From: an uncultured Anaerolineales bacterium
Lineage (GTDB): Bacteria; Chloroflexota; Anaerolineae; Anaerolineales; RBG-16-64-43
Assembly (NCBI GenBank): GCA_964521085.1
Contig: CAZFPL010000002.1
Coordinates: 2,044-66,043 of the forward strand
Direction of reading: 5' to 3'
Length of the DNA stretch: 64,000 bases
This document shows positions 24,461 to 64,000 of the stretch, in pieces. A program made the position numbers and the translations under genes. The notes beneath the pieces were generated by a model, which was given only the letters and a program-made list of their open reading frames with translations, ran no database searches and was not told the origin of the DNA. Each line of letters starts with the position of its first letter. The first letter of the stretch is position 1.

Positions 24461-24865
24461 TTAATGGGTGCGCTTCAGTTCATCCTTGAATACCGCCGAG
24501 AGGACCATATTGACAATCGCCACGATCACGGCGCCCAGGAATGCGGCGACAAAATCAGCTTTGAAACCAAAACCGATCAATCCGCCGATCTGTCCGGTCA
24601 GCCAGAAGAGGAACGTGTTGATCAGCAGCGTGAACAGGCCGAGGGTGACCAGGATGAACGGGCAGGTCAGGATTTTCAAGACAGGCGCCACAAGCGCGTT
24701 GACCAATCCGAAGATCAGCGCAAGGACGAGAATGGCCAGCCAATTGGCGGACTCTATGACGAGTCCCTGCCCCGGCCGGAGGGCGCTGTAGATTACCGGT
24801 ACCAAGCGGATGGCCACATAGATCGCGACCGCATTAATTCCCAATCGAACGAGAAACCGGGTCAT
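24461..24865 (-). CDS. DUF360 / phage-holin-4_2-family small membrane protein
   Basis: ORF track gives 24461..24898. ATG 24865 overlaps the GNAT stop as ATGA. The protein has four TM helices and an INAVAIYVA...LVNALVAPVLKILTCPFILVTLGLFTLLIN pattern. Confidence 0.65.
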   Translation of the reverse strand: MTRFLVRLGINAVAIYVAIRLVPVIYSALRPGQGLVIESANWLAILVLALIFGLVNALVAPVLKILTCPFILVTLGLFTLLINTFLFWLTGQIGGLIGFGFKADFVAAFLGAVIVAIVNMVLSAVFKDELKRTH

Positions 24866-25848
24866 GGGACACCTCCAAGAATAGTATATCGCATCCATAT
24901 GAATGTACGTCTTTTCTGGAATCCGAGTTTTACCAGGGAATCAACCGAAACCTCCGGCGTCGTCTCGAGCAGGACGCCCTTGTCCGGTGGAAAAACCTTC
25001 CAGGCCGCATCCAGCAGCGCCTGTTCCACCTGCCCGCTTGTTCCCCCGCGCTGGATCAGCGCCCCTTCCCACCCGGAAAAATGGGTGTACGCCGCGAGGG
25101 AGGCTTCCACTCTGCCGCCGCACCGGGCGAGAAAATGTCTCTCTATCTCTCCGGCCAGCAACCCTTCGATCAATTTCCAAAAGGAGGTCCGAAAGGCGTT
25201 TTCCGTCAGGGGAGTGTTCCATGCGGTACCGTACGGGCTGACTTCCTGATAAAGGGCGTATTCCTCTCCCCACTCGGAGGATTTCCGGATCGAGATCCGG
25301 CAGGGCGCAGCGGCAACCTCTTCCGGCCGCGGGGCTTTCTTTTCCTCCCGGCCGCGCAGCCAGGAAATCCGCCCCCCGATTTCATCAAATCCAAGCTCTC
25401 GGTAAATCCGCACCGCCGATTCATTGACCGCGTCCACCTGCAGATAAATCGTCCGGCCGCCCTCGGCGCGGATGACGTCCATTGCATGCTTTGCCAGATC
25501 CCGGGCGATACCCTTGCGGCGGAAATTTGGATGGACGGCCACATTCGAGATCAACCAGGCTCCGTTTTCCGGCGCGCGATGGGTGAGGGTGGCGTTGCCC
25601 ACGATCTTTCCCTCCTCCTCCCATACCGAGCCGAACGCCCATTCATCCGGCGACACGCCGCCGATAATCCGCGAGAGGGTCCAGGCTGCGCCGCCCCTTT
25701 CGGCGATCCAGCGCACATCCCGCAGCGCTTTTCGGGAGGAAAAATCCAACACTGCGGAAAAGCACAATTCCACCAGCTGGGTGATTTGCGGCACGTCCTG
25801 CGGAAAGCGCGCCCGTCGCGGGCCAGAGGGCGGTTCAGAGGTTGTCAT
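24862..25848 (-). CDS. GNAT-family N-acetyltransferase (N-terminal GNAT domain plus ~150-aa second domain)
   Basis: 328 aa. Acetyl-CoA motif A, VAVHPNFRRKGIARDL, is followed by LQVDAVNESAVRIYRELGF. Confidence 0.75.
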   Translation of the reverse strand: MTTSEPPSGPRRARFPQDVPQITQLVELCFSAVLDFSSRKALRDVRWIAERGGAAWTLSRIIGGVSPDEWAFGSVWEEEGKIVGNATLTHRAPENGAWLISNVAVHPNFRRKGIARDLAKHAMDVIRAEGGRTIYLQVDAVNESAVRIYRELGFDEIGGRISWLRGREEKKAPRPEEVAAAPCRISIRKSSEWGEEYALYQEVSPYGTAWNTPLTENAFRTSFWKLIEGLLAGEIERHFLARCGGRVEASLAAYTHFSGWEGALIQRGGTSGQVEQALLDAAWKVFPPDKGVLLETTPEVSVDSLVKLGFQKRRTFIWMRYTILGGVP

Positions 25849-25899
25849 TGCGGGAAAGGGAAGGGAAAACGAGCAACGGTACCGGTGCGGAGTGGATCA

Positions 25900-27321
25900 T
25901 CAAGAACCTTGGAAACGGACGATCGTCCCCAATGTCCGCAGGAAAATTTTAAAATCCAGCGTCAGCGAGCGGTGGCGGATGTAATACAAATCATATTCCA
26001 GCTTGAGCGCCGTATCCTCGACCGTGCGCACGTAACCGTAATTCACCTGCGACCATCCCGACAGGCCCGGTTGGACCAGCAGGCGGGCGCGATAGAAGGG
26101 GATCTGCTTTTCCAATTGGGCGATCCATTCCGGCCGTTCGGGGCGCGGGCCGATCAGGCTCATATCGCCGCGCAGCACGTTCCAGAATTGCGGGATTTCA
26201 TCCAGCCGCGTACGCCGCATCCATTTGCCGATCCGCGTCACCCTCGGATCCGACGGGGAAGCCCAGCGCGCTTCACCGTCGGGCTCGGCGTCCTGCACCA
26301 TGGTCCGATACTTCCAGATCCAGATCGAATGGCCGCCCTTCCCCGATCGTTCCTGCCGGAAGAGAATCGGTCCGGGGGAATCCAACCGGATCAGCAGGGC
26401 GATCAACGGGAACAAGGCGATGTGGATGGACAGCCCGACAATGGCCACGAAGATGTCGATCAGACGCTTAAGCGGGCTGTACAGATCGTACAGACGGACG
26501 CTGTCGAGGAACGAAGTCAGCAGCCAATCGGCGCTGAGGTATCCGATCGGCACGCGCCCAAGGAGGGATTCGTACAGCGCGGGCATGCGGATCACTTCCG
26601 CCCCGCGCTCCTGGCAGTCGAGGATCGCCTGGAACAACTCCGGGTGGATCCTGCCCGTGATTGCCAGTATCAGAACAGAAATCCCCTGCTGGGTGACCGT
26701 ATCTTGAAGAATCTGCCAGCTTCCCAGAACAGGAACGCCCTGCATTTTCGTTCCGAGTTTTTCCGGATCATCATCGATCATTCCACAGATGCGGAAATGA
26801 CCGGGGACTTCCTCGGTCAGGACGCGGAGCATCACCGCTCCCGCCCGTCCCGCGCCGATGATCAAAACCGGCCGCTGCAATCTCGGCAGCGTAAAGAGGC
26901 GGATCGCCAGCATCCTCCAGGTGAATTCGAAGACGGTTATGGAAAAAAGGAAAACCAGGATCGCCACGCGGGGAAGCGAACCAGGGGTCGCGAAGAAATA
27001 CAACCCGAGGTACGGGATCAGGGAAATTCCCGTGGCAAGCGCCAGGCCGGATATCGTTCGTTCCTGCGAAAAGGCGACATGCGGATCGTAGAGGTGGAAG
27101 ATAAGGAAGAACCACAGCGGCCCAAGCAGCAGGAACGGGGTCAGTGCGTCTTTCGTCCGCAGGAATCCGATCGGATCCTGCAGAGCCCCGTCGATCCAGA
27201 TCCACACCCCCCAGGAGGTGATGACGGCCAGGATTACGCAAAGCAGATCCCCGGCAAACAGGAGTGCCTGGCGTTCGGAAAGGCTGATGCCGGTTCGGGG
27301 AATCGACGGTGAGTTCGCCAT
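25900..27321 (-). CDS. Polyprenyl-phosphate hexose-1-phosphate transferase (WbaP/WcaJ/EpsB-type 'bacterial sugar transferase', large form)
   Basis: 473 aa. It has 4-5 N-terminal TM helices and a central Rossmann-like region (VLIIGAGRAG). The C-terminal catalytic domain carries KRLIDI..., FRQERSG, KYRTM, DEIPQFWNVLRGDMSLIGPRPERPE and PGLSGWSQVN. Confidence 0.88.
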   Translation of the reverse strand: MANSPSIPRTGISLSERQALLFAGDLLCVILAVITSWGVWIWIDGALQDPIGFLRTKDALTPFLLLGPLWFFLIFHLYDPHVAFSQERTISGLALATGISLIPYLGLYFFATPGSLPRVAILVFLFSITVFEFTWRMLAIRLFTLPRLQRPVLIIGAGRAGAVMLRVLTEEVPGHFRICGMIDDDPEKLGTKMQGVPVLGSWQILQDTVTQQGISVLILAITGRIHPELFQAILDCQERGAEVIRMPALYESLLGRVPIGYLSADWLLTSFLDSVRLYDLYSPLKRLIDIFVAIVGLSIHIALFPLIALLIRLDSPGPILFRQERSGKGGHSIWIWKYRTMVQDAEPDGEARWASPSDPRVTRIGKWMRRTRLDEIPQFWNVLRGDMSLIGPRPERPEWIAQLEKQIPFYRARLLVQPGLSGWSQVNYGYVRTVEDTALKLEYDLYYIRHRSLTLDFKIFLRTLGTIVRFQGS

Positions 27322-27333
27322 GGGGATTGCAGG

Positions 27334-28308
27334 TTACGCCTTGGGCTGCCGGCGGAAATATTCGATGATCTCGTCGAGGGTTTTCGCGAGCGGGATTTCC
27401 GGCTTCCAGCCGGTCACACGCTGGATTTTTTGGATATCCGGGATGCGCTGGCGCATATCCTCGAATCCGCCGTTGTAAGCCTGGCTGTAAGGGATGAATG
27501 CCAATTCGGATTTGGAGCCGGTGCGCTTTTTCACCATCTCGGCCAGCGCGCGCATGCTGATCTCTTCCGTGGAGCCGATGTTGAATACCTGCCCCTCCGC
27601 CGCCGGGTTTTCGATCAAAAGCAGAATCGCCCGGACGACGTCGCGCACGTTGCAGAAGCAGCGGGATTGCGCGCCGTCGTCGTGCACGGTGATGGGCTCA
27701 CCGTTCAGCGCCTGGCGGACGAATCGCGGGATGACCATGCCGTATTGTGCGCTCTGCCGCGGCCCGACCGTGTTGAAAAACCGGCCGATCACCACCGGCA
27801 GGTGGTGCGAGCGGTGGTAGGCCAGGGCGAGAAATTCATCCAGCGCTTTCGACGTGGCGTACGCCCAGCGGGTGACGGTCGTGGCGCCGAACACCCCGTC
27901 GTCTTCTTCTCGGAAGGGAACTTTGTTGTTCTTCCCGTAAACCTCGGAGGTCGACGCCAGAAAAACTTTCCGCCGGTAACGGCGGGCCACGCGCAGCACG
28001 GCTTCGCTGCCCATGACGTTGGTTTCGATCGTCCGAACCGGATCATTGACGATGAGCTGGACTCCCACGGCGGCGGCCAGGTGCAGGATGCGGTCGCACT
28101 CGCTTCCCAGCCGGTCCATGACAGTCTCGTTGGTGATCGTCTCCAGCGCGAAGGAGAACCGGGAATTTGCGGTAAGCGGTTCGATGTTTTCAAAACGGCC
28201 GGTCGATAGGTCGTCGATGACCGTCACCTGATCCCCGCGGGCGAGTAACGCTTCGGCCAGATGACTGCCGATGAATCCGGCGCCGCCGGTGATGAGTGTA
28301 TGGGTCAT
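27334..28308 (-). CDS. NAD-dependent nucleotide-sugar epimerase/dehydratase (extended SDR; specificity unknown)
   Basis: ORF track gives 27334..28383, trimmed to ATG 28308 (MTHTLITGGAGFIGSHL), which overlaps the upstream stop as ATGA. ASTSEVYG and catalytic YATSK are present. Confidence 0.8.
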   Translation of the reverse strand: MTHTLITGGAGFIGSHLAEALLARGDQVTVIDDLSTGRFENIEPLTANSRFSFALETITNETVMDRLGSECDRILHLAAAVGVQLIVNDPVRTIETNVMGSEAVLRVARRYRRKVFLASTSEVYGKNNKVPFREEDDGVFGATTVTRWAYATSKALDEFLALAYHRSHHLPVVIGRFFNTVGPRQSAQYGMVIPRFVRQALNGEPITVHDDGAQSRCFCNVRDVVRAILLLIENPAAEGQVFNIGSTEEISMRALAEMVKKRTGSKSELAFIPYSQAYNGGFEDMRQRIPDIQKIQRVTGWKPEIPLAKTLDEIIEYFRRQPKA

Positions 28309-29831
28309 GATTTTTTTCCCTTTCGACGAATGCCAAGCACGACTTCTTCCAATGCCCGGGTCCGGGAGGATGGGTCGCTCCACTCGCCTTCGGTCGGGGA
28401 TGCGCCGCCGGGAATTTCAGCGCCGGGTGCGGCGACCAGGCGTCCGGAAAATTCGGCTGCGGCTTTTCGGATTTCCGCCGGCCATCCCCCGCCGCGGCAA
28501 AAAATGATCAGATGCGCCTCGCTGAAAAACTCGCTGACCTTTTGAGAGTCGGCTCCCTCCGGGAAGGACAGCACCCTTCCCGTCAGCCGGAATATCTTAT
28601 GCCAGGTGTCCGCCGGCCCGATTCCTTCCCCGATCCCGGAATCCATCCATGCTCCGAATGTTTCCGGCTCCTGAGCCATGGCGCATAGGTAAGCCCGCAA
28701 TATTGTTTTCTCGGAACGGGGCGATGTCGCGACCATCAGATTGGAGGACAACGTCCGTGCCGATTGAATCGCCGCGACCCCCTGATCATCCTCCGCCAGG
28801 ATGATGACAAGCGGATTGTTCAGCGGGATCGGTCGCGCCCGCTGCAAGATCATCAGACCGATCAACCCGACGGCCAGCAATACGACGAACAGAAGGGTGG
28901 CAAGGTTTGGCCGGGAATGAGTCATCATGATGGCAAGGATGCCGAGCAATCCGGCGGCCAGGTACATGGAAAAGACCGCGCGGTTGATGCCGAGGCCGAG
29001 CCGGGCCAATCGGTGCGAGGTGTGGTCCGTGCCGCCCGCCGAGACCGGCCGCCGGGTGAGCAGCCGGGAGAAGGTGACCAAGGTGGTGTCGAAAATGGGC
29101 AGCCCCATGACGACGATCGGCACCATCCAGGTGGATCCCAGCGGAAGGTTGCTTGGGGAATACTTCACACCGATCACCGCCAGCAGGAATCCGAGGAGCA
29201 GCGAACCGGTATCGCCCATGAAGATCATGGCGGGGGAGATGTTGTAATAAAGGAATCCCAGCGATGCGCCGGTGACCGCCGCCGCGAGGCTCGCCACCAA
29301 TCCCTGCTGCGCCGAAGCGGCCAGGATGGTGAAGAAGAGTGCGGAGACGGCCGACGTTCCCGCCGCCAATCCGTCCATGTTGTCCATCAGATTGATGGCG
29401 TTGGTGATTCCGACAAACCAAAACAGGGTGATGAGGAAGTTCACGGCCGGCCACGGGGTGATCTGCACCCGCACGCCCGCCGCTGCGACGAGCACCGCCG
29501 CTGCGATCTGCGCCAGAAGTTTCGCCCGCGGGGCGATTCCCCGCCGGTCGTCCCACAAACCCACAAGCATGAGCAGCGTCGCGCCGACCGCGACCGCCGC
29601 CATCGGGATCAGTTCGGTGGAGAAGTCGACCTGAAAGAGGGCCGCGCACAGCGCAATGTAGATTGCCAACCCTCCCAGGAGCGGCATGGGGCGGACGTGC
29701 ATTTTGTGCGGCTTCGGTTCGTCGACGAAACCCGTATGGAAAGCCACCCGGCCGATGACCGGCGTGGCGACGAAGGCGGCCAGAAACGAGAAGATGATGA
29801 GAGGAAGATATAAATCCATCCGCACCGTCAC
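28305..29831 (-). CDS. MraY/WecA-family polyprenyl-phosphate N-acetylhexosamine-1-phosphate transferase with ~170-aa C-terminal soluble extension
   Basis: 508 aa. WDDRRGI (Mg-binding DD), NAINLMDNMDGLAAG and about 10-11 TM helices in the first ~335 aa. A non-hydrophobic tail follows. The start is GTG 29831 (GTGA overlap with the upstream stop) or ATG 29819. Confidence 0.85.
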   Translation of the reverse strand: MTVRMDLYLPLIIFSFLAAFVATPVIGRVAFHTGFVDEPKPHKMHVRPMPLLGGLAIYIALCAALFQVDFSTELIPMAAVAVGATLLMLVGLWDDRRGIAPRAKLLAQIAAAVLVAAAGVRVQITPWPAVNFLITLFWFVGITNAINLMDNMDGLAAGTSAVSALFFTILAASAQQGLVASLAAAVTGASLGFLYYNISPAMIFMGDTGSLLLGFLLAVIGVKYSPSNLPLGSTWMVPIVVMGLPIFDTTLVTFSRLLTRRPVSAGGTDHTSHRLARLGLGINRAVFSMYLAAGLLGILAIMMTHSRPNLATLLFVVLLAVGLIGLMILQRARPIPLNNPLVIILAEDDQGVAAIQSARTLSSNLMVATSPRSEKTILRAYLCAMAQEPETFGAWMDSGIGEGIGPADTWHKIFRLTGRVLSFPEGADSQKVSEFFSEAHLIIFCRGGGWPAEIRKAAAEFSGRLVAAPGAEIPGGASPTEGEWSDPSSRTRALEEVVLGIRRKGKKS

Positions 29832-31021
29832 CGCGAACGCATCCCGTTCGATTTTTGAAGAATCAGCGTCTCGTACAGGGAGGCCATGGCGGAAAGCATC
29901 CGCTCCCGGCCGAATCGCTCTTCCACTTCCCGGCGGGCCCGGACGCGCATTTGCTCCGTTGGCGTTTTCTCCCCGAGGGCTGTCCGCCAGGCTTGGAACA
30001 TTGCCTCGGAATCGCCCGCTGGAACAAGCCGGCCGGTCTCCCCATCCCGGACCACATCCGGCACGCCGCCCACCGCAGTCGCCACAACCGGCACTCCGGC
30101 GGCCATGGCTTCAATAACCGCCACAGGCGTCCCCTCGTTATCCGACGTCAGCGCAAGCAGATCGAGCCCCGCGTACACCGGAACCATGTCCTTGCGCCAG
30201 CCCAGGAAACATACGCGGTCCGCGATTCCCAGTTCGGAGGCAAAAACCCGCAACGAATCGCGTAATTCGCCGTCCCCGACGACGACGAACCGGGCCGGGA
30301 GACCCGAGTCTACCATGCTTCGCGCCGCCTCCAAGAAAAGGCGGTGATTCTTGATGGGAACGAGGCGGCCGACTGTCCCTACCAGGGGCTCTTCCGCGCC
30401 GATCCCCAGCTCAGCCCGCAATTCATTGCGGCGCGAGTCGCACCCGAGGAGAGGATCGAGGTCCATGCCGAGCGGGATGACATCGATCTTTTCCGGACCG
30501 GCGATGCCCATTTCCACCAGGTCGGCCTTCAGCGCCGGGCTCAAGGTGACGATCCGGTCGGTGATCCGGGTCAATCCGCGCTCGATATTGCGGAAGATGC
30601 CTTCCACCGGCCGGGGAAAATAGCCTCGCAGGACATGGCCGTGGAGCGTGTGAACCACCACCGGCACTCCCGCGCAGCGGGCTGCCGCTCGCCCGACGGC
30701 GCCGGCTTTCGCGGTATGGGTGTGAACTACGTCCGGTTTCCACGATCGAAAGATTTTCAGGAGCTGGAAGAACGCGATGAGATCCGACGGCCCGAGATGG
30801 GGCGAGAGGGCCGGCACGATCTCCGGCCGCACCCCTTTCTCCTCCGCCAGGTAATGCATTCCGGTCTCGCCGCGGCCTTCACGGCCGGCGATCAACCGCA
30901 CCGTGAAGCGGCCGTGGGGCAGCCCCGCCGCCAGTTCGATCACGTGCGTGGCCGGCCCGCCGACGTTCAGGCGCGCGATGACGATGGCAATCCGCAGGGG
31001 ACGATCGGTCTTCTTGTCCAT
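29828..31021 (-). CDS. Glycosyltransferase family 4 (GT-B, retaining)
   Basis: ORF track gives 29828..31093, trimmed to ATG 31021 (MDKKTDRPLRIAIV). VGGPATHV and the E-x7-E region SDNEGTPVAVIEAMAAGVPVVATAVGG are present. Confidence 0.8.
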   Translation of the reverse strand: MDKKTDRPLRIAIVIARLNVGGPATHVIELAAGLPHGRFTVRLIAGREGRGETGMHYLAEEKGVRPEIVPALSPHLGPSDLIAFFQLLKIFRSWKPDVVHTHTAKAGAVGRAAARCAGVPVVVHTLHGHVLRGYFPRPVEGIFRNIERGLTRITDRIVTLSPALKADLVEMGIAGPEKIDVIPLGMDLDPLLGCDSRRNELRAELGIGAEEPLVGTVGRLVPIKNHRLFLEAARSMVDSGLPARFVVVGDGELRDSLRVFASELGIADRVCFLGWRKDMVPVYAGLDLLALTSDNEGTPVAVIEAMAAGVPVVATAVGGVPDVVRDGETGRLVPAGDSEAMFQAWRTALGEKTPTEQMRVRARREVEERFGRERMLSAMASLYETLILQKSNGMRSR

Positions 31022-31177
31022 GGAGGCCGGAATCTTGGGACGATTATATACCAGGGCGCGGGGGGTATCACGAATTCTCGTTCTATTCACCAACGGCGAT
31101 CGGAATGATCTCGGGGCGAGGTTGTCTCTATTTCAGATGAACACGGCGCACGACTCGTTTATCGATATGCAGCCACC

Positions 31178-32317
31178 CTATTCTTTGGAAACACCGGCAA
31201 GACTGCGGTAAACCTGCGCTGTGTGCTGCGCCATCCGTTCGACGGTGAAATCCTTCTTTACCCGCGCCTTTCCCGCGCGCCCCATCCGGTCCGCCCGCTG
31301 CCGGTCGGAAAGTAGAGTCCGAATCGACCCCGCCAGTTCGACGGGATCCCCGGGGGAGACGAGCAAACCGGTTTCCTCCGGAACAATAATCTCCGGAAGC
31401 GCGGAAACGCGCGATGCCACGATCGGTTTCCCGAGCGCCATGGCTTCCAGCGCCACCAGGCCGAATCCTTCCCAGCGCGAGGGAACTACAAGCAGATCCA
31501 CATCGGCCATGATATCCGCCGCGTCATCACGCCATCCCAGGAACATCGCCCGCCGGAGCTCCAATGATTGCGCCAGCCTCATAAGCGCCGGACGGTCCGG
31601 GCCGTCCCCCGCCAAAATGAGTCGCGCCGACGGATGTCCTTTCTCCACTTGCGCGAACGCGTGCAACAGCACGTCGACCCCCTTTTGGCGGGTCAACCGC
31701 CCAACGAATCCGATCAACTCCTCGGAGTGCGCGCCGATTTCCTTGCGGAACGCGCCGGGGTGCGCCGACCGCGTGAACGCCTCCGTATCCAACCCGTAGG
31801 GAATGACTTCGACCTTTTCCGCGGCCGCTCCTTCCACATCCACGAGAAAGCGGCGCACGGCCCGCGAGATCGCGATAATCTGGCCGGCGCGCCGGAGCGA
31901 CGGCGAGAACACCCAGCGCAGAGGAAGCCAGCGGCGGAACCGGTCATCGTTGTGGCGGGAGATCACAAGCGCCCGGTCTGGAAAAACCCGCAGCGCGAGC
32001 TCGCCGTACACTTCCCCGTGCGGAAGGTGCGCATGCAGGATCTCGAACGGTTCGCGGCGCAGGATATCGCCGAGGGCAGGCGGCAGCGCCGGATCGAGAT
32101 GCCATCGGATGGGGAGGGTGTGAACGGGGATGCGCTCCCGTTCGAACCGGGAGCGCAACGCGGCTTGCGGCCGGCGTGGATCTTCCATCAGGATCACGCT
32201 CGGATCGACATCGAACGCGCGCAAGGCGGGCAGCAGCGCGAGCAGATGGCTTTCCGCGCCGGCGATACCGACGGCTTTCAGTAGATGGTGGGTTCTTATC
32301 CGTTGCGCTTGCGGCAT
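31178..32317 (-). CDS. Glycosyltransferase family 4
   Basis: ORF track gives 31178..32656. The first 113 aa are Arg/Gly-rich and overlap another frame that holds a methyltransferase motif. Trimmed to ATG 32317 (MPQAQRIRTHHLLKAVGIAGAESHL). E-x7-E region: SRWEGFGLVALEAMALGKPIV. Confidence 0.78.
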   Translation of the reverse strand: MPQAQRIRTHHLLKAVGIAGAESHLLALLPALRAFDVDPSVILMEDPRRPQAALRSRFERERIPVHTLPIRWHLDPALPPALGDILRREPFEILHAHLPHGEVYGELALRVFPDRALVISRHNDDRFRRWLPLRWVFSPSLRRAGQIIAISRAVRRFLVDVEGAAAEKVEVIPYGLDTEAFTRSAHPGAFRKEIGAHSEELIGFVGRLTRQKGVDVLLHAFAQVEKGHPSARLILAGDGPDRPALMRLAQSLELRRAMFLGWRDDAADIMADVDLLVVPSRWEGFGLVALEAMALGKPIVASRVSALPEIIVPEETGLLVSPGDPVELAGSIRTLLSDRQRADRMGRAGKARVKKDFTVERMAQHTAQVYRSLAGVSKE

Positions 32318-32601
32318 CGCCACACCAGCAAATTGGAAAAAAGATCCGGATGAATTGCTGCGAACCGGCCGGCTTCGGGGCCGCGCCGGAGGGATTCCCC
32401 GTCGATATCCGCCCCGATGACCGGATTTCCTTGCAGAATATTGACCGTGAGTGCCCCGTCCCGGCATCCCAGATCCAATATATGCCGGCCGGCGCCGATC
32501 CAGGCCGCAAGGATCGCGATCCGCTCCCTGCCGCCGAACGTGAATCCCGAACGGTCTCCCGATTCGTGATGTGCGCGGTAGGTTTTTTCCAAGCGGCTCA
32601 T
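32296..32601 (-). pseudogene. Truncated class-I SAM-dependent methyltransferase remnant (N-terminal ~75 aa only)
   Basis: 101-aa ORF. Motif I (HILDLGCRDG) and the post-I acidic residue (VIGADID) are present. The frame then degenerates and stops inside the start of the next GT4 gene. Motifs II and III are absent. The start ATG overlaps the upstream stop as ATGA. Confidence 0.55.
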
Positions 32602-45338: not shown

Positions 45339-45368
45339 GATTCCTCCTATCTCCTGTTTCGTATGACT

Positions 45369-49849: not shown

Positions 49850-49851
49850 TG

Positions 49852-54171: not shown

Positions 54172-54211
54172 GTCTGCGACGGAATTCTACCCGGATCGAT
54201 TCCTTTTCGAC

Positions 54212-54958: not shown

Positions 54959-54970
54959 CCCCGAATGCGC

Positions 54971-56950
54971 TCATGGAATCCGGAAGATCAAGTAGTGACC
55001 GATGACGGTCTCCGGCTCCTTGCCCTGCAGGTAATCCGGAACGCCGACATTCCGGTCCACCACTATCCAGGATCCGCCGGCCGGAGGTTCCGCGGATGCG
55101 GATCCGAGGTTGCGCACGCCGAAACGGGTTTCCAGCAAATAATCAAACCAGTCTTCGATCCGGCATCCCAGGCACTGCGGGTCTCCCGGCGAATTGGAAT
55201 CGTACATCCAATACTCCACCCACAGGGTGCGTTCCGTACCGGTGCCGGCCCTTTCGGCAAGAAATTCCACGACCTTCCACTGGTCGTTGTCCGTCCCGGA
55301 ATACCCGTTCGTGAGTGTATTCGAAATCCTTTCCACACATAAAGGCACGGGCAATATCGCCGCGCCCAAGGCCATCGTCAAAATCGCGTGGGCTAGATCA
55401 GGCCGGCGGAACCGTTCCGCCGCCCATCGCAAGCCCAGGACCGCAATCCAAACCTGAAACGGCCACATGAACCAAAAGCGCTCCGGCCTCCCGGGCTCCG
55501 CCATGATCACCAACACCAGCCAGGGCAGCGTGAAAACGAGGAACAGGATCGCATGATCCGGCTGCCTTTCCGGGACGAAGGCGGAGAGCAACCACCCCAG
55601 GCAGACGGCCAGCCAGAACCATGGAGCGAATCCCCTCATCTGCTCCACGGCCAGGGACATGTTGCGGTCGAGGGACTTATCCGCCGCGAAATTTGCGACC
55701 AGATCCGGGTTCAGCGCAAGATAGAAAACCAGCGCGCCGGCCGCGGCCAGCACCAGGGGAATCCACGGTTTCCGGCAGGCGATATCCACAATCCGCCGCG
55801 CCGGGCGCCAGGACCGGAATAAAACCCACCCCAACCCCATCCAACCGATCATGAAAATCCACCACAGGAGGGTGTTTAAAATCCGATTCGTCCCGAGGGA
55901 AAACAGATCGGTGTCGAAGTTTCTATCAATGTTCAATAGGATCCGGCAGATTCGATAGGCCGCCTGGTTCTTCCACCCGGCAATCGGGTAGATCACCCGT
56001 TGTTCGATCTCCGAACCGCCTACGTAGGGAAGGTAAATATCGTTCGGTTCGTCATTTTCGCCGGGCATGGCGGAGTAACAGTAAACGGGATCGGCGGAGG
56101 ATTTTTCCCAAACCGAACCCACGGGCCGCAGGAGCAGAATGGAAGCCAGGTCCACGAATCCGCGGCCGGATTCAAACTGCAAATAGGGGAACCACACCAG
56201 CAAGCCAAACAACGCCGAGAACAGCAGACTCTTCCATCCGACCGGCGGACGAAAGACCAGCCACAGGACGGGCAGAACGAAGAGAAAAGGAAGAATCGCC
56301 AAGTCGACATACAACCCAAAGGCGAGGATCGCAAGCGCCGCCCCCAGCGCCCAGGACACGCGCCGCTTCACCCAAAGGATGAGGAAATACAACGGCGCCA
56401 GGATGAAAATGGGATGACCGACCGGCCAAAGCCCGATGAACCCCAGGCGGGACGCGCCATACACGATGGCCGTCGTAAGCGCCACTGCGCGGCCGGCGAG
56501 CTCGCGGGCCGCCAGATACAGGAAAATCAGGGTGCCGTACACCAACAGAGCGGTTCCGGCCAAATCCTGCAAGCGCGGATCCGAGGTCAACAACATTCCC
56601 GGGGCCATCAGAAAAAACGTGCCCGGTGGATTGAAGGAGCCGTAACTGGATATTTCTCCCTGCCGGGGGATCTTTCCGGTCGCAAGAAAATCCCGTGTGC
56701 CGTAAAAATAAGGAAGCATGTCAAGATTAAGGAGCTCGCCGCTTCGCCACCCCTGAAAGTGCATGAGCAGGGTAAACGTTCCGACCGCCATGATCAAGAA
56801 TAGATCGATCCAAATAGTATTTTTTGGATTCTTAAACGCAGCAACAATTCCATGCAGACTCGGTCGCGATTTGCCCTGGATCTCTCTCGAATCATCCGGA
56901 AGGGGAGTGACGGGTTTAAGCACAGCGGATTGAGAATTTTTCATGATCAT
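54971..56950 (-). CDS. Polytopic GT-C-like glycosyltransferase (ArnT/PMT_2-like), paralogue of 37160-39043
   Basis: ORF track gives 54971..57577. The first 209 aa are Arg/Gly/Ala-rich and overlap the GT2 gene region, so the start is trimmed to ATG 56950 (MIMKNSQ...). First loop: LNLDMLPYFYGTRDFLATGKIPRQGEISSYGSFNPPGTFFLMAPG. Many TM helices and a C-terminal soluble domain follow. Confidence 0.6.
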   Translation of the reverse strand: MIMKNSQSAVLKPVTPLPDDSREIQGKSRPSLHGIVAAFKNPKNTIWIDLFLIMAVGTFTLLMHFQGWRSGELLNLDMLPYFYGTRDFLATGKIPRQGEISSYGSFNPPGTFFLMAPGMLLTSDPRLQDLAGTALLVYGTLIFLYLAARELAGRAVALTTAIVYGASRLGFIGLWPVGHPIFILAPLYFLILWVKRRVSWALGAALAILAFGLYVDLAILPFLFVLPVLWLVFRPPVGWKSLLFSALFGLLVWFPYLQFESGRGFVDLASILLLRPVGSVWEKSSADPVYCYSAMPGENDEPNDIYLPYVGGSEIEQRVIYPIAGWKNQAAYRICRILLNIDRNFDTDLFSLGTNRILNTLLWWIFMIGWMGLGWVLFRSWRPARRIVDIACRKPWIPLVLAAAGALVFYLALNPDLVANFAADKSLDRNMSLAVEQMRGFAPWFWLAVCLGWLLSAFVPERQPDHAILFLVFTLPWLVLVIMAEPGRPERFWFMWPFQVWIAVLGLRWAAERFRRPDLAHAILTMALGAAILPVPLCVERISNTLTNGYSGTDNDQWKVVEFLAERAGTGTERTLWVEYWMYDSNSPGDPQCLGCRIEDWFDYLLETRFGVRNLGSASAEPPAGGSWIVVDRNVGVPDYLQGKEPETVIGHYLIFRIP

Positions 56951-57210: not shown

Positions 57211-58170
57211 TCAGAACGATCCGCGATGCAGCAGGATCTGAAGCCAACGCGCTTCCCGCCGGAAAGCGGGATGTTTCCAGATCCGCCGAAGCACAAACCA
57301 CCGCCAGACGAATGCGTTCATACTTTTCCCCTGCGTCACGTCCGCCAGGATCAGGCGGAGCATTTGCCGGCAGACCAGGCCTTCGGGTTCGCGGCGGAGC
57401 TTTCCCGGCAAGGCATTCAGGTAATCCAGCAGCCAGCTCCAGAATTCCATCTCGTTCTTCCGGAGCGCTTCCGGATCGCTGAAGAGTTTCGCCACGGAGG
57501 ACTGTCCGTGCTGGCGGTAGCGCGCCACGAAGGCCGAGTCCGCGCGCACAGGATATCGCAGGCTGAGTTTGGCCCAAACCGCCATATCCGTCCGCACCTT
57601 GCGGAACCGCTCTTCGAACCCACCGACCTCATTCAGTGCGGAGTGCCGGATCAGGGTGGCCGTGGGGCAGGGGTAGATGTTCGCATCCCGGAGAAACGCC
57701 ACCGTCAATTCCGGCGGGCGGTAGATCCGGTCTTCGAGGGGCGCGAACGGCTGATCCCATCCGGTTCCCTCCTTGGGATCATCGAAAAAGTAGCGCACCC
57801 GCGCAAACGTCATCGCCGCCTCGGGCGCTTCTTCCAGGATCTTCTTCTGGCGTTCGAGCTTCTCCGGAAGCCAGATATCGTCGGCGTCGAGGAAGGCGAT
57901 GTACTCCCCGCGCGCCTCCCGCAGACCGCGGTTGCGCGCCGCGCTCGCCCCGCGCGCATCAGAAGCCTCCGGCAGGAGTGGGCGCACCCGGGTTGGATCG
58001 CGCCGCGCATATTCGAGTGCGAGTTCTGCGCTGCCGTCCTCGGATCCATCGTCGACCAGAATCGTCTCCCAATCGGAGATCGTCTGGGCATATACCGATT
58101 CCACCGCATATGCGAGAAACCGGCGCATATTTAAAAACGGTATGATGACGCTGATCGCAGGAGACGGCAT
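57211..58170 (-). CDS. Glycosyltransferase family 2
   Basis: 319 aa. ISVIIPFLNMRRFLAYAVESVYAQT...ILVDDGSEDGS and FLDADD (DxD). Confidence 0.85.
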   Translation of the reverse strand: MPSPAISVIIPFLNMRRFLAYAVESVYAQTISDWETILVDDGSEDGSAELALEYARRDPTRVRPLLPEASDARGASAARNRGLREARGEYIAFLDADDIWLPEKLERQKKILEEAPEAAMTFARVRYFFDDPKEGTGWDQPFAPLEDRIYRPPELTVAFLRDANIYPCPTATLIRHSALNEVGGFEERFRKVRTDMAVWAKLSLRYPVRADSAFVARYRQHGQSSVAKLFSDPEALRKNEMEFWSWLLDYLNALPGKLRREPEGLVCRQMLRLILADVTQGKSMNAFVWRWFVLRRIWKHPAFRREARWLQILLHRGSF

Positions 58171-58176
58171 TTCTCC

Positions 58177-59796
58177 TCAGGGAGTCAACTCATAAATCAT
58201 CCGCGATCCGTCGCGGCTGGTGTAGATGGGAGTCAGCGCGCTTTCCGCAATCGGGACGAAATCGGGGGCAAGTCCGCGCAGATCGTCATCCACCACCAGG
58301 TAGCGGCATCCGGCTTCACTCATCGCCGCCCGCAAGGCATCCGGGTCACCGACCTCATAGAAGAGTTGCCAATACCCGTAAACGTCATGATGGGAATAAA
58401 TGGCTTCCGCCGCGTTGTACGAAATGACGCATTCGCCGCGCGGAACCTGCGCCGATAGTTCCGTCAACCAGGCCCGGTACTGATCCTCCGATTGCCGCTT
58501 CGCATTCCAACTGCGGAATTGCCCCGCTGCGAAGGCCAGCTGGGCTCCGAGCATGCTCACGGCCACAAGTGACCATATCGCAATAAGCGGCGCCTGCTCC
58601 GACTTGAGAAGCGCTCGGAATTGCGCTGCCACCGGGACGGCTCCCGCCACAACCAGGGTGATCAGAACGGGGAACAGCATTCCGAAGAACCCCGGCCGAT
58701 AGGAAGCCAGGGCGTACCCGGCGAGCGGTAAACACCACAGCAGCGCCAACCCAATGACCGCGCGTTTGCCGCCGTTCCACAACGCCAACGCGCCGCCGGC
58801 GGCCAAAAAGAGGAACATCGCTCCGCCCAGGATGCTGTACGCATCGTAAAACATCCGAGCGGCATTCGCCGCCGTCCGCGGAAGCCGCGAGAGAAACGCT
58901 TTGGGATTCCGGGCAATTGCTCGCAAAACGTTGTTGCCGTTTTCCTCCGCCGTTCCATACAGTTCGGCCGAACTGGGAGAGGGAATGACCTCGTATCGGT
59001 CGGTATAAAGAAAGTTGTGCCCCTGCTCGAAGGCCAGGTAACTTCGCTGTCCGATTTGCGGATCCCATTTGCCGGCAACGATGCCGTACGCCAGGACAAA
59101 GAGGACCACCGGGATGATGAATCCGCCCGCGAAGAAAAGCGCATCCCGCACCGCAGGACGGCCGCGTCCGCGGAAGAACCAAAGGATGGGAATGAGCATA
59201 CATCCCAGGATCAATCCGTCCAATCGCGCCAGCGCCGCAAACCCCAGCAACAGCCCGATCCCGATCCAGCGCACGACGCCCATCTTCCCCCCGCCCCGTT
59301 TCTCCGCGATCCAGCCGGAGATCAGAACGGCGAAGCTCAAGCCGGCCAGCGCGCCATAGAGGGAATCCGCCGTGACCATCAGAATGGTGGTCACCGGCCG
59401 GGCAATCGCCATCACGGCCAATGCCGCCCAGCCGCCCCATCGGCCGCCGACGGCCTTCCCCGCGATTCCCGCGGCCGCCATAATACCGATGAGCAAAATC
59501 ACTCTGCGCACGATGGAAACATAACCCAACAACATGTGGTCGCGCGGGAAGAAGAGATAAATGAAGCCGTTGAGGATGCCGGAAAGCGGTCCACTTCCCA
59601 GCGGCATCATGGTCCCCTGCTCCACCAGCCGGACTCCGTCGAAAAGGTAACCGCTGTCGTCCAAGCCGGGGAACCGCTCGCTGAGGATGGGCAGCTGGCA
59701 GAGGATCCCAAAAATAAAAAGCGCCGCAGTGACGATGATTCCGGACCACCGGAACCGGATTGTGCTTTCGGCAAGTTTTCGCAGGGAATTCACCAT
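58177..59796 (-). CDS. Polytopic GT-C-like membrane protein (ArnT/PMT_2-like, divergent)
   Basis: 539 aa with about 12 TM helices. First loop: FPGLDDSGYLFDGVRLVEQGTMMPLGSGPLSGILNGFIYLFF. There is a C-terminal ~110-aa soluble domain. Confidence 0.5.
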   Translation of the reverse strand: MVNSLRKLAESTIRFRWSGIIVTAALFIFGILCQLPILSERFPGLDDSGYLFDGVRLVEQGTMMPLGSGPLSGILNGFIYLFFPRDHMLLGYVSIVRRVILLIGIMAAAGIAGKAVGGRWGGWAALAVMAIARPVTTILMVTADSLYGALAGLSFAVLISGWIAEKRGGGKMGVVRWIGIGLLLGFAALARLDGLILGCMLIPILWFFRGRGRPAVRDALFFAGGFIIPVVLFVLAYGIVAGKWDPQIGQRSYLAFEQGHNFLYTDRYEVIPSPSSAELYGTAEENGNNVLRAIARNPKAFLSRLPRTAANAARMFYDAYSILGGAMFLFLAAGGALALWNGGKRAVIGLALLWCLPLAGYALASYRPGFFGMLFPVLITLVVAGAVPVAAQFRALLKSEQAPLIAIWSLVAVSMLGAQLAFAAGQFRSWNAKRQSEDQYRAWLTELSAQVPRGECVISYNAAEAIYSHHDVYGYWQLFYEVGDPDALRAAMSEAGCRYLVVDDDLRGLAPDFVPIAESALTPIYTSRDGSRMIYELTP

Positions 59797-59829
59797 TATG
59801 TCAACCTTCCTTTGCCGGGCGGACCCGAT

Positions 59830-60708
59830 TTACCCGGGCTTCCATCGCTTTCGTCCGAGAACCCAAACCCGCAGAAGATCAGGGAGCGTCCTCAACCTGC
59901 GGCGCAGAATATCCGCGGAGAACGCATGCACAATTCTCCCATCCGGACGGATCCGGTGCGTGGCGTCGGGAGTGCCGTAAAGATAGCGTTCGTAACTGGC
60001 CAGGGCGAAGTTGCGTTTAGCCTCCTCGCCCGCATACACGCCTTTCTGCCCGCCGGCATGATGTCCGTATTCGTGATTCTGGTGGATGGCGAAGACGTAA
60101 TCGGAACTGTTGATCACGTCCATCCTCCGCGCGAGGGCCCAGAACACGATCCAATTATCCCAGGCCGGACGTCCGATGACGATCGGGGGAAATTCCGCAA
60201 GACCTGTTCCTCCGCCCCAGGCGCCCTTTGGAAACATGAAATAATCCAGAGCGGATTTGATCGCCGGCTTCCCGTGTTCGTGGGCGAATCCTTCCAACCG
60301 GCTTTCCCAATCGGGAAGGGAGAAATCAAATGGTTCGCGAAGGTCGGTATCCCACCGGCGCCCGAACATCATGTACGGCTTACGCCAAGTCGCCAGAGTC
60401 TGCGCCGCCCGGATCAATCGATTGGTAAACAAGATGTCCGCATTGGCATAGAGCAGGATCGGAAACGACGCGTGGGCTTCGGCTACCGAAAAAATCGACC
60501 GCAACAGCGGCGTTCCGAATTCACTCCGTTCCACCTCCGGGATCATCCGCGCGCCGAATTCCCTGGCGACTGCGGCGCTTCCCTTCTCCTCGCCGATCAG
60601 AAGCACTTCGCAAGCGGGCTCCAGCCGCCGCCAGCAGGCCACGGTGTTCCGCTGGGTAATTTCGACGGCATCCTGAAACGGTTTGGTCGATGTGAACAGG
60701 GTGATCAT
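59830..60708 (-). CDS. Hypothetical protein, possible GT-A-like transferase (unclassified)
   Basis: 292 aa. MITLFTSTKPFQDAVEITQRNTVACWRRLEPACEVLLIGEE...LLYANADILF. The start overlaps the upstream stop as ATGA. Confidence 0.45.
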   Translation of the reverse strand: MITLFTSTKPFQDAVEITQRNTVACWRRLEPACEVLLIGEEKGSAAVAREFGARMIPEVERSEFGTPLLRSIFSVAEAHASFPILLYANADILFTNRLIRAAQTLATWRKPYMMFGRRWDTDLREPFDFSLPDWESRLEGFAHEHGKPAIKSALDYFMFPKGAWGGGTGLAEFPPIVIGRPAWDNWIVFWALARRMDVINSSDYVFAIHQNHEYGHHAGGQKGVYAGEEAKRNFALASYERYLYGTPDATHRIRPDGRIVHAFSADILRRRLRTLPDLLRVWVLGRKRWKPG

Positions 60709-62069: not shown

Positions 62070-62236
62070 GCACGCTCCTGGTGTTAAACGTCCGGAATAA
62101 TCCGCCGGCAAGGCGTTCTATTAATTCCGTTTCCGGTTTCTTTTCCACGTCCACCTTCCCGCGCGGGAGGTAATTGTACCCGTGATTATGATGAGCCGCG
62201 GTCAGCGCGATGCGATAGACAGCCTCCGCCCCGCCA

Positions 62237-64000
62237 TCAGGAAAAACGCCGGCACCACATCTCGAGGACCAACGCCCGGAAGGAAAGCATCGCCGTCAGA
62301 TCGGATTGGGATAGATCGCCCGCCAGCAACCGCTCGGCTTCGGGCTTTAGGATTCCAGCCTGGACCAGGTAACCATCTTTTAGATTGTGGCGATACGCCT
62401 CGAAAAGTCCGGCCGTCCACAGTCGTACCGGAGGGGCGAACCCGCGTTTCGGGCGATTCATCACCCAATCCGGAAGGATTCCTTTCATCGCCTCTTTCAA
62501 CCATGCTTTGGGCGGCAGCTTTCGGTCGGATTGGGTCTTCCGAAGGCCGATGACGGTTTCCACCAGGCGGTGATCGACCAGGGGCAAGCGTAATTCCACC
62601 GAGGAAGCCATGCTCAACCGATCCCCCTGGGTGATCCCATTTTCCAGCAGATACGTGTCACAGATCAAATGGGTGGTGATAATATCCACCGGGGGCCACG
62701 GCCAGGCCCTGGTGAAGGGAGCGTAAGGGCCGGATTCATCCAGCCGCTCGCGGAATGCCGGACCGTACAGCCCTTCATAAAAACCGTATAGCGCGGCGAA
62801 ATCATAGCAAACATCGTAAAACCGCAGCCGGTCCGGCGGGCTATCCCGGAGATCCAGGAACCGTTTCCAGCCGGGGCGCAATCCGCCGATTGACTCCACC
62901 CACTTGCGCAACCCGTTGCGGGTCCACTTCGCGGGCAGAGCGGGTTCGAGATAGCCCGGGAGAGCCGCCCAACCCCGTCTCCGCAGCGCCGATTTCTGAT
63001 CCGTTTCGTGCGCCGCCTGCCGCACCCATGGATAGCCCCAGAAGAGCTCATCCCCCCCTTGGCCTTGCAGCATGACCGGAACGCCGTGCTCGCGGGCCAG
63101 CCGCATCACGGCATAGTAGGCGTATCCGGAAATATCCGCGATCGGGTCGTCGTGCCAGAACACCAGCTCGGGAAAAAAATCCACCACCTGCCCGGTTTCC
63201 ACCTCGACTTCGTGAAACGGCATCCCCAGATGGTCGGCCAGCGCCTTGGCGTCCAGCCGTTCGTCCACGTCGGGGTACCCCGGATAGCCCACGCTGAAGG
63301 CGTGCATGATCCCGGGATATTTTCGCGCGGCCAGGACGGCGATGCTTCCCGAATCCAATCCGCCGCTGAGCGCAACCCCGACGGGAACGTCCGAGCGGAT
63401 CACCAATTCGCTTACCGTTTCCAGCTCCGCCCGAAGCAAATCTCCGGGCTGCCCTGTCAGCGGGGGCGCCTCTTCCATATTCCAATAGCGGCGCTCGGTG
63501 ACCTGCCACGGATCGAGGGTTACGGTCAGAAGATATCCCGGAGAAAGTTTGCGCACCCCGCGGATGGGCGTGGCAGGCTCGGGCACATATTGGTAATTGA
63601 AAAAGAGGTACACGCCGGCCTCATCGAGTTCGAATGGGACCGCACCCGATTTCAGCAGGGCTTTGAGTTCGGAGGCGAAGATCAATCGATTGTTCCCTTC
63701 CCAAAGGTAAAGCGGTTTCTCCCCCATCCGGTCGCGCGCGAGCAGCAGCCGCTGGCGCTTGCCGTCCCACAGGGCGAAGGCGAACATGCCCCGCAGGCCG
63801 TGAACACAGTCATCGCCATATTCCTCGTAGAGATGCAGGATCGTCTCGCCGTCGCTGTGGGTGTGGAAGACATGCCCCTTGGCCTGCAGCTGTTCTCGTA
63901 ATTCGATGAAATTGTAAATTTCCCCGTTGAGGATCAGTGCCAAGGTGCGGTCTTCGTTATAGAGGGGTTGCCAGCCGCCCTCCAGATCGATGATGCTGAG
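62237..64000 (-). CDS. asnB: Asparagine synthase (glutamine-hydrolysing) family amidotransferase, N-terminus beyond window end
   Basis: The frame stays open to position 64000 (RC reads ...LSIIDLEGGWQPLYNEDRTLALILNGEIYNF). The PP-loop ALSGGLDSGS is present. The ORF-track start at 63943 is an internal Met. Confidence 0.85.
   Translation of the reverse strand, partial: LSIIDLEGGWQPLYNEDRTLALILNGEIYNFIELREQLQAKGHVFHTHSDGETILHLYEEYGDDCVHGLRGMFAFALWDGKRQRLLLARDRMGEKPLYLWEGNNRLIFASELKALLKSGAVPFELDEAGVYLFFNYQYVPEPATPIRGVRKLSPGYLLTVTLDPWQVTERRYWNMEEAPPLTGQPGDLLRAELETVSELVIRSDVPVGVALSGGLDSGSIAVLAARKYPGIMHAFSVGYPGYPDVDERLDAKALADHLGMPFHEVEVETGQVVDFFPELVFWHDDPIADISGYAYYAVMRLAREHGVPVMLQGQGGDELFWGYPWVRQAAHETDQKSALRRRGWAALPGYLEPALPAKWTRNGLRKWVESIGGLRPGWKRFLDLRDSPPDRLRFYDVCYDFAALYGFYEGLYGPAFRERLDESGPYAPFTRAWPWPPVDIITTHLICDTYLLENGITQGDRLSMASSVELRLPLVDHRLVETVIGLRKTQSDRKLPPKAWLKEAMKGILPDWVMNRPKRGFAPPVRLWTAGLFEAYRHNLKDGYLVQAGILKPEAERLLAGDLSQSDLTAMLSFRALVLEMWCRRFS

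Follow-up and report, generated by a model that had tools for sequence, protein, structure and literature searches.

In an uncultured bacterium of the Anaerolineales (Chloroflexota), a single-strand locus of roughly 50 kb probably directs the synthesis of an envelope or surface heteropolysaccharide that depends on an ATP-binding cassette (ABC) transporter for export and is then elaborated outside the membrane by glycosyltransferases of the GT-C type. The window, i.e., the whole stretch of 64,000 nucleotides that was analyzed, contains about four fifths of this locus, and the part studied here extends from position 24461 to position 64000. The genes of a predicted Wzm/Wzt exporter continue this gene string on the same strand, 4.9 to 7.0 kb beyond the end of the window, and the apparent absence of an exporter comes from where the window ends. 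An earlier sequence-only reading of this DNA had described a locus without an exporter and had named in advance a Wzm/Wzt set just past 64000 as the finding that contradicts this description; such a set is what we found, and the description has to be abandoned.

That the locus does not stop at 64000 follows from the gene for an AsnB-type amidotransferase, which is truncated by the window end. Metagenome contigs matching the 292-residue protein encoded at 59830-60708 (here termed G) proved to be 99.9 to 100% identical to the window. Contig L003 reaches 5.8 kb past 64000, where it breaks off within the gene of an ABC ATPase; the 299 C-terminal residues that it encodes include a Wzt_C-like tail, and a full-length Wzt of 417 residues (P0180) is 100% identical to this fragment over its extent. 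Contig L016, which carries the full-length gene, overlaps both window positions 63126-64000 and L003 at 99.8% identity, and the longest contig carrying Wzt, like the longest carrying an exact copy of the window protein F described below (P0121), was reported as 159,615 bp. By means of these overlapping contigs, the window numbering was carried past 64000, giving the virtual coordinates used in Table 1.

The wzt gene adjoins wzm, overlapping the wzm stop, and both predicted proteins resemble characterized exporters. The alignment of Wzt with the Aquifex aeolicus Wzt (8dku_A, E value 6.6e-62) spans residues 53-377, reaching residue 357 of 404, and thus runs past the nucleotide-binding domain, beyond which our protein has an extension of about 165 residues. 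Wzt also matches TagH (TagH/TarH; E 3e-54) and mycobacterial RfbE (E 8e-46), and its best NCBIfam models, TagH and a galactan Wzt, are matched below their cut-offs. For Wzm, the PDB matches are the Aquifex Wzm (6oih_D, E 3.7e-14), the mycobacterial Wzm (9qfx_A, E 1.9e-12), and TarG, while the top NCBIfam model is the mycobacterial galactan permease.

The exporter genes keep their place in related organisms. The closest species-representative genomes are four Anaerolineales metagenome-assembled genomes (MAGs) whose Wzt proteins show 88 to 89% identity to ours, which bears out the initial guess of a Chloroflexota host. Gene order is kept in the Anaerolineales MAGs, with about 77 to 89% protein identity where measured and with Gmd added. 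On a 206-kb contig (JAFGCU010000026) of MAG GCA_016932475.1, the orthologous locus runs from UDG through gmd, a gene for a 715-residue polytopic protein, the fcl-like gene, wzm, wzt, the deacetylase, a 599-residue GT-C-like protein, a methyltransferase, the paralogue of G, ugd, G, F, and GT2; further along, it continues with a methyltransferase, GT25, GT61, an open reading frame (ORF), GT61, DUF1647, GT2, GT2, GT4, GT2, the GT-C genes D, C, B, and A, and four GT4 genes. GT25 is on the opposite strand in this relative as well, and no AsnB gene occurs at the corresponding position. Because this order is the same on the relative's contig, the whole arrangement is one conserved unit of about 50 kb. 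A contig of a relative (L018) holds the four GT4 orthologues in the same order up to the contig end, together with two 287-residue orthologues of the tandem GT2 enzymes; the Wzm/Wzt pair is kept on contig L009 of a relative, and Wzt alone was matched in four relatives.

The G+C content of the window is about 60%. In the locus, 33 of 34 genes lie on the minus strand (P of about 4e-9), and the sole plus-strand gene is GT25; likewise, between 24461 and 64000 every long ORF with a family match is on the minus strand except the GT25 gene. Independent assemblies of the same organism yield concurring gene calls for 49.8 to 63 kb. The Pfam inventory comprises 2 priming enzymes, 7 GT4, 4 GT2, 2 GT61, and 1 GT25 enzymes; a short-chain dehydrogenase/reductase (SDR), a nucleotide-sugar dehydrogenase, the AsnB amidotransferase, an S-adenosylmethionine (SAM)-dependent methyltransferase, and a GNAT; and three soluble ORFs outside any glycosyltransferase family, namely, a DUF1647 protein at 49031 and two ORFs without a Pfam match at 51064 and 59830. 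Much of the sequence-only reading is thereby borne out: this inventory, the single-strand layout with GT25 as its exception, and the ten four-base stop/start overlaps on the minus strand (ATGA at 24862, 28305, 32598, 33647, 34837, 35997, 37160, 40732, and 60705; GTGA at 29828). Its statement that Wzx, Wzy, Wzz, Wza, and Wzm/Wzt are missing is likewise true of the window itself, in which none of the roughly 50 ORFs tested against Pfam matched the MOP/Wzx, Wzy_C, Wzz, Wza, or ABC-2 families.

The six polytopic proteins that had been noticed in the window at 540 to 660 residues are real (539 to 657 residues) and are here called A to F. Their hydropathy profiles show 7 to 13 peaks or membrane segments each (10 in E). 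By blastp, they sort into the three families A/E, B/C/D, and F: A and E are 35% identical over 550 residues (E 3e-81), B and D are 36% identical (E 6e-87), and C is 27% identical to both B and D (E of about 1e-34). Only A matches a curated sequence model (PMT_2), with no Pfam or NCBIfam match for B, C, D, E, or F. The homologues of D and F were collected and aligned (alignments A1 and A2, respectively), and PDB sequence searches with A, D, F, and the A1 profile gave no match.

The AlphaFold model of D (pLDDT 89, pTM 0.90) retrieved from the PDB by Foldseek a list led by ArnT (5f15, E 5e-6), AglB, AftB (TMq 0.51), AftA, STT3, and AftD, with Pmt4, DPY19, ALG9, PglB, PimE, and EmbA/B among the further matches and a probability of 1.00 at ranks 1 to 24. 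The model of F (pLDDT 86, pTM 0.86) retrieved AglB (3waj, E 7e-7), STT3, ArnT (5ezm, TM 0.57), PglB, and ALG12 as leading matches and AftA, ALG9, and Pmt4 further down. All 11 matches of D and all 21 matches of F at an E value of 0.001 or less are GT-C enzymes, none of the listed Foldseek matches of either model is a WaaL, Wzy, MurJ, or Wzx chain, and transporters are listed with probabilities no higher than 0.25. Neither Pfam nor NCBIfam assigned any of A to F to Wzy_C, O-ag_pol_Wzy, EpsG, or Polysacc_synt. A, D, and F are GT-C-type enzymes, and B, C, and E are assigned to the same type by their paralogy to D and A. The earlier GT-C reading of these proteins therefore stands, an assignment to Wzy, ligase, or flippase families having been looked for and not found.

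Sequence features of the first loop, which had been described as GT-C-like, agree with this view. A DD or ED pair directly follows the first transmembrane segment (TM1) in B, C, D, and F, where it is invariant across their families, whereas A and E have only a single conserved Asp (D46) in common. The B/C/D family has the invariants D45-D46, E148 (in GMEH), and R190-Y-E192, and basic residues ahead of TM1 imply an N-in topology. By hhalign, the GT-C families show only weak N-terminal similarity to one another (41% probability for A1 against A2, 2% for A3 against A1), which is not decisive. One F orthologue carries PF09913, which we take to be DUF2142. A role of F as an oligosaccharyltransferase was considered and rejected, given a C-terminal soluble domain of only about 90 residues and no WWD-type (W[WY]D) motif; this motif occurs in none of the polytopic proteins, which argues that none of them is an oligosaccharyltransferase.

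Neither Pfam nor NCBIfam has a model for the very large GT-C family of which B, C, and D are members. Clustering at 50% identity gave 3,618 clusters at an E value of 1e-30 or less and 6,198 at 1e-10 or less, including proteins labeled Glassbacteria and Saccharimonadales by their sources. The family conserves DDxYIHM after TM1, GMEH, and RYEG, as well as an alpha/beta domain at the C terminus that contains an NDIGA motif, and 2 of 33 family members gave weak GtrII matches (E 0.01). That a family of this size has no Pfam or NCBIfam model is mildly new.

From the established logic of these families, we infer the following pathway. The WecA-like transferase, the Bac_transf transferase, or both would begin the glycan on polyprenyl phosphate at the cytoplasmic face, and the fourteen soluble GT4, GT2, GT61, and GT25 enzymes would then lengthen it in the cytoplasm. 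Among the nucleotide sugars would be a GDP-6-deoxyhexose, made by Gmd and the Fcl-like SDR, and a uronic acid supplied by Ugd, which the adjacent AsnB may amidate. The methyltransferases may cap or decorate the chain, and it is possible that such a cap is read by the C-terminal domain of Wzt. Following export of the polymer by Wzm/Wzt, the six GT-C enzymes of the window and a probable seventh, with active-site loops predicted to face outward, would add branches or side chains from donors that would be linked to polyprenyl phosphate. The polysaccharide deacetylase might trim N-acetyl groups of the exported chain, for which peptidoglycan, a lipid, or an S-layer protein is a candidate final acceptor.

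Several observations weigh against this interpretation. The sequence of the exporter genes comes not from the window but from other metagenome assemblies of the same population. The match of this organism's own Wzt to the Pfam Wzt_C domain, obtained with the 299-residue C-terminal fragment only, falls short of the cut-off (E 2e-3; 18.5 bits versus 30.4); the domain (PF14524) is found in many of the listed Wzt orthologues of 79% identity or less and in none of the closest (80 to 100%). No polyprenyl-phosphate-sugar synthase of the GtrB/ArnC/DPM1 type is recognizable in the locus, and all four GT2 enzymes have no transmembrane helices. The 715-residue polytopic protein is unclassified, and the presence of two priming enzymes of different superfamilies suggests more than one lipid-linked intermediate. 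Finally, about 74 kb of sequence yielded neither a GtrA-type or Wzx flippase nor a ligase of the LCP or WaaL type; PF04138 (GtrA) was matched by none of the roughly 50 window ORFs, and neither MOP nor Wzy_C was matched by any ORF of the window or its extension. These functions of donor supply, flipping, and ligation may be encoded elsewhere or carried out by unassigned proteins of the locus, for which the candidates are the 292- and 309-residue paralogues, the 271-residue ORF, the DUF1647 protein, the DUF360/holin-like protein, and the 715-residue polytopic protein.

As to donor supply, the GT2 enzyme at 57211-58170 has chondroitin synthase, GalT1, and PglI as its best PDB matches, with ArnC/DPMS at only 5e-6 to 7e-5, and the one at 43959-44867 best matches chondroitin synthase and soluble GT2 enzymes. 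Judged by these alignments, the two tested enzymes resemble soluble elongating GT2 enzymes far more than ArnC/DPMS (E values of 1e-19 to 1e-22 for chondroitin synthase versus 5e-6 to 1e-4). The enzyme at 57211-58170 was considered as a GtrB-like donor synthase and rejected, as it combines weak ArnC/DPMS similarity with the lack of transmembrane helices.

The pair of priming enzymes opens the way for another hypothesis, in which one locus makes two glycans. In this scenario, the WecA-like and GT4 enzymes build a backbone that leaves through Wzm/Wzt, while the Bac_transf, GT2, GT61, and GT25 enzymes make a separate polyprenyl-diphosphate oligosaccharide that is flipped by an unrecognized protein and transferred or polymerized en bloc by GT-C enzymes, in the manner of WpsI/WpsJ in Lactococcus. 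The different superfamilies of the priming enzymes, the oligosaccharyltransferases as nearest structural matches of F, and the absence of a recognizable monophosphate-sugar synthase are all consistent with it, as is the use of C55-P-oligosaccharide donors by lactococcal GT-C enzymes (PMC9574508). However, no Wzx/MOP flippase is present in the window or the 10 kb beyond, the two halves of the locus are contiguous and kept as one unit in the relative, and F has neither the WWD motif nor a C-terminal domain of the expected kind, so that we regard this scenario, which refines rather than excludes export through Wzm/Wzt followed by GT-C elaboration, as possible but rather unlikely. The notion that no Wzx/Wzy or ABC system takes part, so that the polymer is built outside the cell by GT-C enzymes alone and polyprenyl-phosphate sugars serve as its precursors, fits the lack of any exporter family inside the window, but it appears highly improbable in view of the Wzm/Wzt pair on the same strand of contigs that are 99.8% identical to the window, and of its conservation in a relative. 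Furthermore, fourteen cytoplasmic glycosyltransferases and two priming enzymes point to substantial assembly in the cytoplasm, for which export is needed.

It is also conceivable that a surface protein, for instance of the S-layer, receives the exported glycan or single sugars, some of the GT-C proteins acting as PMT-like or oligosaccharyltransferase-like protein glycosyltransferases. Geobacillus has ABC-dependent loci for S-layer glycans that bear methyl caps, A matches PMT_2, a family related to protein O-mannosyltransferases, the top structural matches of F are AglB, STT3, and PglB, and no LCP ligase for peptidoglycan attachment was found. Yet PMT_2 also takes in ArnT-like lipid and glycan transferases, ArnT and the Aft enzymes match the models as well as the oligosaccharyltransferases do, the WWD motif is missing, and the window showed no gene for an S-layer protein, making protein glycosylation an unlikely outcome. 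A more detailed proposal can be drawn up for an arabinogalactan-like wall heteropolysaccharide: at least three GT-C families with few or no curated hidden Markov models, the large B/C/D family among them, would branch it heavily outside the membrane, donor enzymes of a new type would be found among G (59830-60708) and its paralogue, the ORF at 51064-51879, and the DUF1647 protein, the DUF360/holin-like or another small membrane protein would serve as a flippase, and the 715-residue protein would act as the ligase or polymerase. We consider this proposal unlikely.

Among characterized systems, mycobacterial arabinogalactan assembly (WecA, GlfT1/2, Wzm-Wzt Rv3781/Rv3783, AftA, EmbA/B, and AftB/C/D) comes close, with WecA-type priming, cytoplasmic elongation, Wzm/Wzt export, which in mycobacteria moves lipid-linked galactan (PMC13018209, PMC10951656), and, as the following stage, the action of several clustered GT-C enzymes outside the membrane; AftB, AftA, AftD, and EmbA/B are among the structural matches of the D model. 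The likeness to arabinogalactan and lipoarabinomannan drawn in the sequence-only reading was thus apt, but the contrast it made with ABC-dependent pathways is a false dichotomy, because arabinogalactan assembly itself uses a Wzm-Wzt exporter (PMC13018209). The locus is nevertheless not the arabinogalactan system itself, as the UbiA/DprE decaprenyl-phosphoarabinose pathway, Glf, and GlfT were not seen among the roughly 50 window ORFs and the GT-C families are not Emb/Aft by sequence (no Pfam match). It further differs in its second (Bac_transf) priming enzyme, in its Chloroflexota host, and in the C-terminal extension of Wzt, which the 260-residue mycobacterial RfbE lacks.

The rhamnose cell wall polysaccharides of streptococci, lactococci, and enterococci (RgpC/D; GacL, WpsJ/WpsI) similarly combine a WecA/TagO-type primed, ABC-exported backbone with side chains added outside by sequence-diverse GT-C enzymes (PMC9574508). 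Those systems encode a GT-A polyprenyl-phosphate-sugar synthase, a GtrA/Wzx flippase, and an LCP ligase, none of which is recognizable here, and one to three GT-C genes as opposed to seven; rml genes are absent from our locus. With the Wzm/Wzt O-antigen exporters (Escherichia coli O9a/O8; Aquifex 8dku and 6oih), the locus has in common the alignments of Wzt and Wzm to the Aquifex proteins, and its methyltransferases could provide a terminal cap; in contrast, there is no outer membrane or lipopolysaccharide context here and no recognizable WbdD-like kinase-methyltransferase terminator, and the classical O8/O9a pathway is without GT-C enzymes. Gtr systems (GtrA, GtrB, and a GtrC-type GT-C; PMC11127046, PMC9574508) have GT-C enzymes with acidic first loops that, like those described here, are predicted to modify an exported glycan. 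Since neither GtrA (PF04138) nor a membrane-anchored GtrB-like GT2 was found in the locus, it is not a three-component system of this type.

Every component belongs to a superfamily already known, and well-studied precedents exist for the scheme as a whole; no new export or assembly principle is revealed. The envelope glycans of Chloroflexota are, however, essentially uncharacterized, with no glycan of this kind characterized in the phylum, and a literature search on sheath or glycan loci of Anaerolineae returned nothing relevant. For the Anaerolineales, abundant filamentous organisms of sludge, sediments, and digesters, the locus offers a concrete genetic plan, conserved among relatives, for making a complex polysaccharide of the surface or wall. 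Its parts are an ABC exporter, six GT-C enzymes with a probable seventh, a pathway to a 6-deoxyhexose, and chemistry that involves a uronic acid and possibly a uronamide.

Table 1. Predicted features of the locus and its continuation (window numbering; virtual coordinates beyond 64000; aa, amino acids)
Feature	Position	Strand	Basis and remarks
Small membrane protein, Phage_holin_4_2/DUF360; last gene of the string	24461-24865	-	PF04020, E 6e-22; family with four transmembrane segments, 3 hydropathy peaks here; start overlaps GNAT stop (ATGA) at 3' end of locus
GNAT acetyltransferase, 328 aa, with C-terminal extension	24862-25848	-	Pfam Acetyltransf_1, E 2e-17
Priming enzyme 1, polyprenyl-phosphate hexose-1-phosphate transferase (Bac_transf, WbaP/WcaJ-like, CoA_binding_3 domain)	25900-27321	-	PF02397, E 1e-62; TIGR03025 EPS_sugtrans, 363 bits (cut-off 295.6)
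SDR nucleotide-sugar dehydratase/epimerase/decarboxylase	27334-28308	-	Pfam GDP_Man_Dehyd/Epimerase; NCBIfam LegB, RmlB, UXS/ArnA-like, all under cut-off
Priming enzyme 2, polytopic MraY/WecA-type phospho-N-acetylhexosamine transferase	28305-29831	-	PF00953 (Glycos_transf_4), E 5e-34; top NCBIfam match WecA, 99.7 bits, under cut-off; 11 hydropathy peaks
Six GT4 in a row (GT-B, nucleotide-sugar-dependent)	29828-31093, 31178-32601, 32598-33650, 33647-34840, 34837-36000, 35997-37163	-	Glycos_transf_1/Glyco_transf_4; mostly translationally coupled through stop/start overlaps
GT-C A, 627 aa, PMT_2/ArnT-like	37160-39043	-	PF13231 PMT_2, E 7e-9, 36.6 bits (cut-off 26.1)
Putative GT-C B, 549 aa, B/C/D family	39086-40735	-	Paralogy to D; NLDDAYIHM after TM1
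Putative GT-C C, up to 543 aa, B/C/D family	40732-42363	-	Paralogy to B and D; PEEDAY after TM1
GT-C D, 545 aa, B/C/D family	42332-43969	-	AlphaFold model and Foldseek
GT2, 302 aa, soluble	43959-44867	-	PF00535, E 3e-27; no transmembrane helix
Degraded toxin-antitoxin cassette, outside the pathway	45015-45704	-	HTH_3, E 3.5e-7; TIGR03070 antitoxin, E 1.4e-7
Seventh GT4, 454 aa	45801-47165	-	Pfam Glyco_trans_1_4, E 2e-31
Two tandem paralogous GT2	47170-48033, 48050-48943	-	PF00535, E 1e-21 and 2e-20; no transmembrane helices
DUF1647 protein, 272 aa as called; unclassified, possibly glycosyltransferase-like	49031-49849	-	PF07801, E 7e-12; gene call on contig L001
GT61	49852-51048	-	PF04577, E 2e-26
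ORF H, 271 aa, no family	51064-51879	-	Gene call
Second GT61	51879-53093	-	PF04577, E 1e-24
GT25	53395-54171	+	PF01755, E 4e-27
SAM-dependent methyltransferase, 236 aa	54212-54922	-	Methyltransf_23, E 3e-6
Putative GT-C E, 657 aa by gene call (maximal ORF 868 aa), A paralogue	54971-56944	-	blastp to A; no direct Pfam match
GT2, 319 aa, soluble, between GT-C genes E and F	57211-58170	-	PF00535, E 1.5e-31; no transmembrane helix
GT-C F, 539 aa, sole family member in the locus	58177-59796	-	AlphaFold model and Foldseek; GLDDSGY after TM1
Soluble ORF G, 292 aa, no family	59830-60708	-	No Pfam or NCBIfam match
Nucleotide-sugar 6-dehydrogenase, Ugd-like, 454 aa	60705-62069	-	UDPG_MGDP_dh N, central, and C domains; TIGR03026, 330 bits (cut-off 189.8)
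AsnB-type glutamine amidotransferase, full length 637 aa	62237-64000, virtual start 64150	-	Asn_synthase, E 8e-67
Paralogue of G, 309 aa	64150-65079 (virtual)	-	L003 4730-5659
SAM methyltransferase	65076-65927 (virtual)	-	Contig continuation
Probable GT-C-like polytopic protein, 598 aa	66034-67830 (virtual)	-	QDDSYYY after TM1
Polysaccharide deacetylase	67835-68851 (virtual)	-	Contig continuation
Wzt, 417 aa	68908-70161 (virtual)	-	PF00005
Wzm, 280 aa	70158-71000 (virtual; L016 3024-3866)	-	PF01061 (ABC2_membrane)
Fcl-like SDR	71000-71950 (virtual)	-	L016; top NCBIfam match GDP-L-fucose synthase
Polytopic protein, at least 683 aa (partial)	from 71970 (virtual; L016 3-2054)	-	Copy of the relative's 715-aa protein

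Among the proteins encoded past the window end, the probable seventh GT-C, of 598 residues, matches GT87 below the cut-off (E 8e-5) and is weakly matched by hhalign with the families of F and D. The 715-residue polytopic protein (L009 5688-7835), whose gene is flanked by gmd and the fcl-like gene and adjoins the wzm/wzt region, has about 15 hydropathy peaks with an insert of about 180 residues after the third. It gave no Pfam, NCBIfam, or PDB sequence match, profile comparison showed no resemblance to any of the three GT-C families, and it is a candidate ligase or polymerase. G and its 309-residue paralogue are 40% identical and have in common an HQNH(E/D)YGHH motif; both are kept in the locus of the relative, and they may represent an unclassified family of transferases. 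For G as for ORF H, Pfam and NCBIfam gave no usable match.

At the other end of the gene string, the WecA/MraY-type enzyme carries a soluble cytoplasmic C-terminal extension of about 170 residues (approximately residues 335 to 508) with no family match. The DUF360/holin-like protein has no obvious phage context, and a role as a small flippase for lipid-linked sugars is only a speculation. Downstream of the locus by 470 bp and on the same strand, a GH5 glycoside hydrolase with a GH5 C-terminal domain (22121-23989, minus strand; Pfam) shows a weak endoglycoceramidase match and might process the glycan.

The toxin-antitoxin cassette consists of a helix-turn-helix (HTH) antitoxin (45015-45338) and a toxin that by eye is RelE/HigB-like and is split over two frames (45369-45500 and 45522-45704); the G+C content falls to 0.558 there, and a promoter-like, near-consensus site (TTGACA-17-CATAAT) is present at 45758-45730. 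As this remnant is absent from GCA_016932475.1, it represents a local insertion and not an operon boundary dividing two systems. The idea that the locus is a mosaic in which two unrelated clusters meet at 45 kb was accordingly rejected, the relative having both halves adjacent without the insert. Finally, a bacterial 16S rRNA gene (Rfam RF00177, 557 bits) is truncated by the start of the window, which at positions 1-586 (minus strand) retains its 5' 596 nucleotides; this gene could place the source organism taxonomically.

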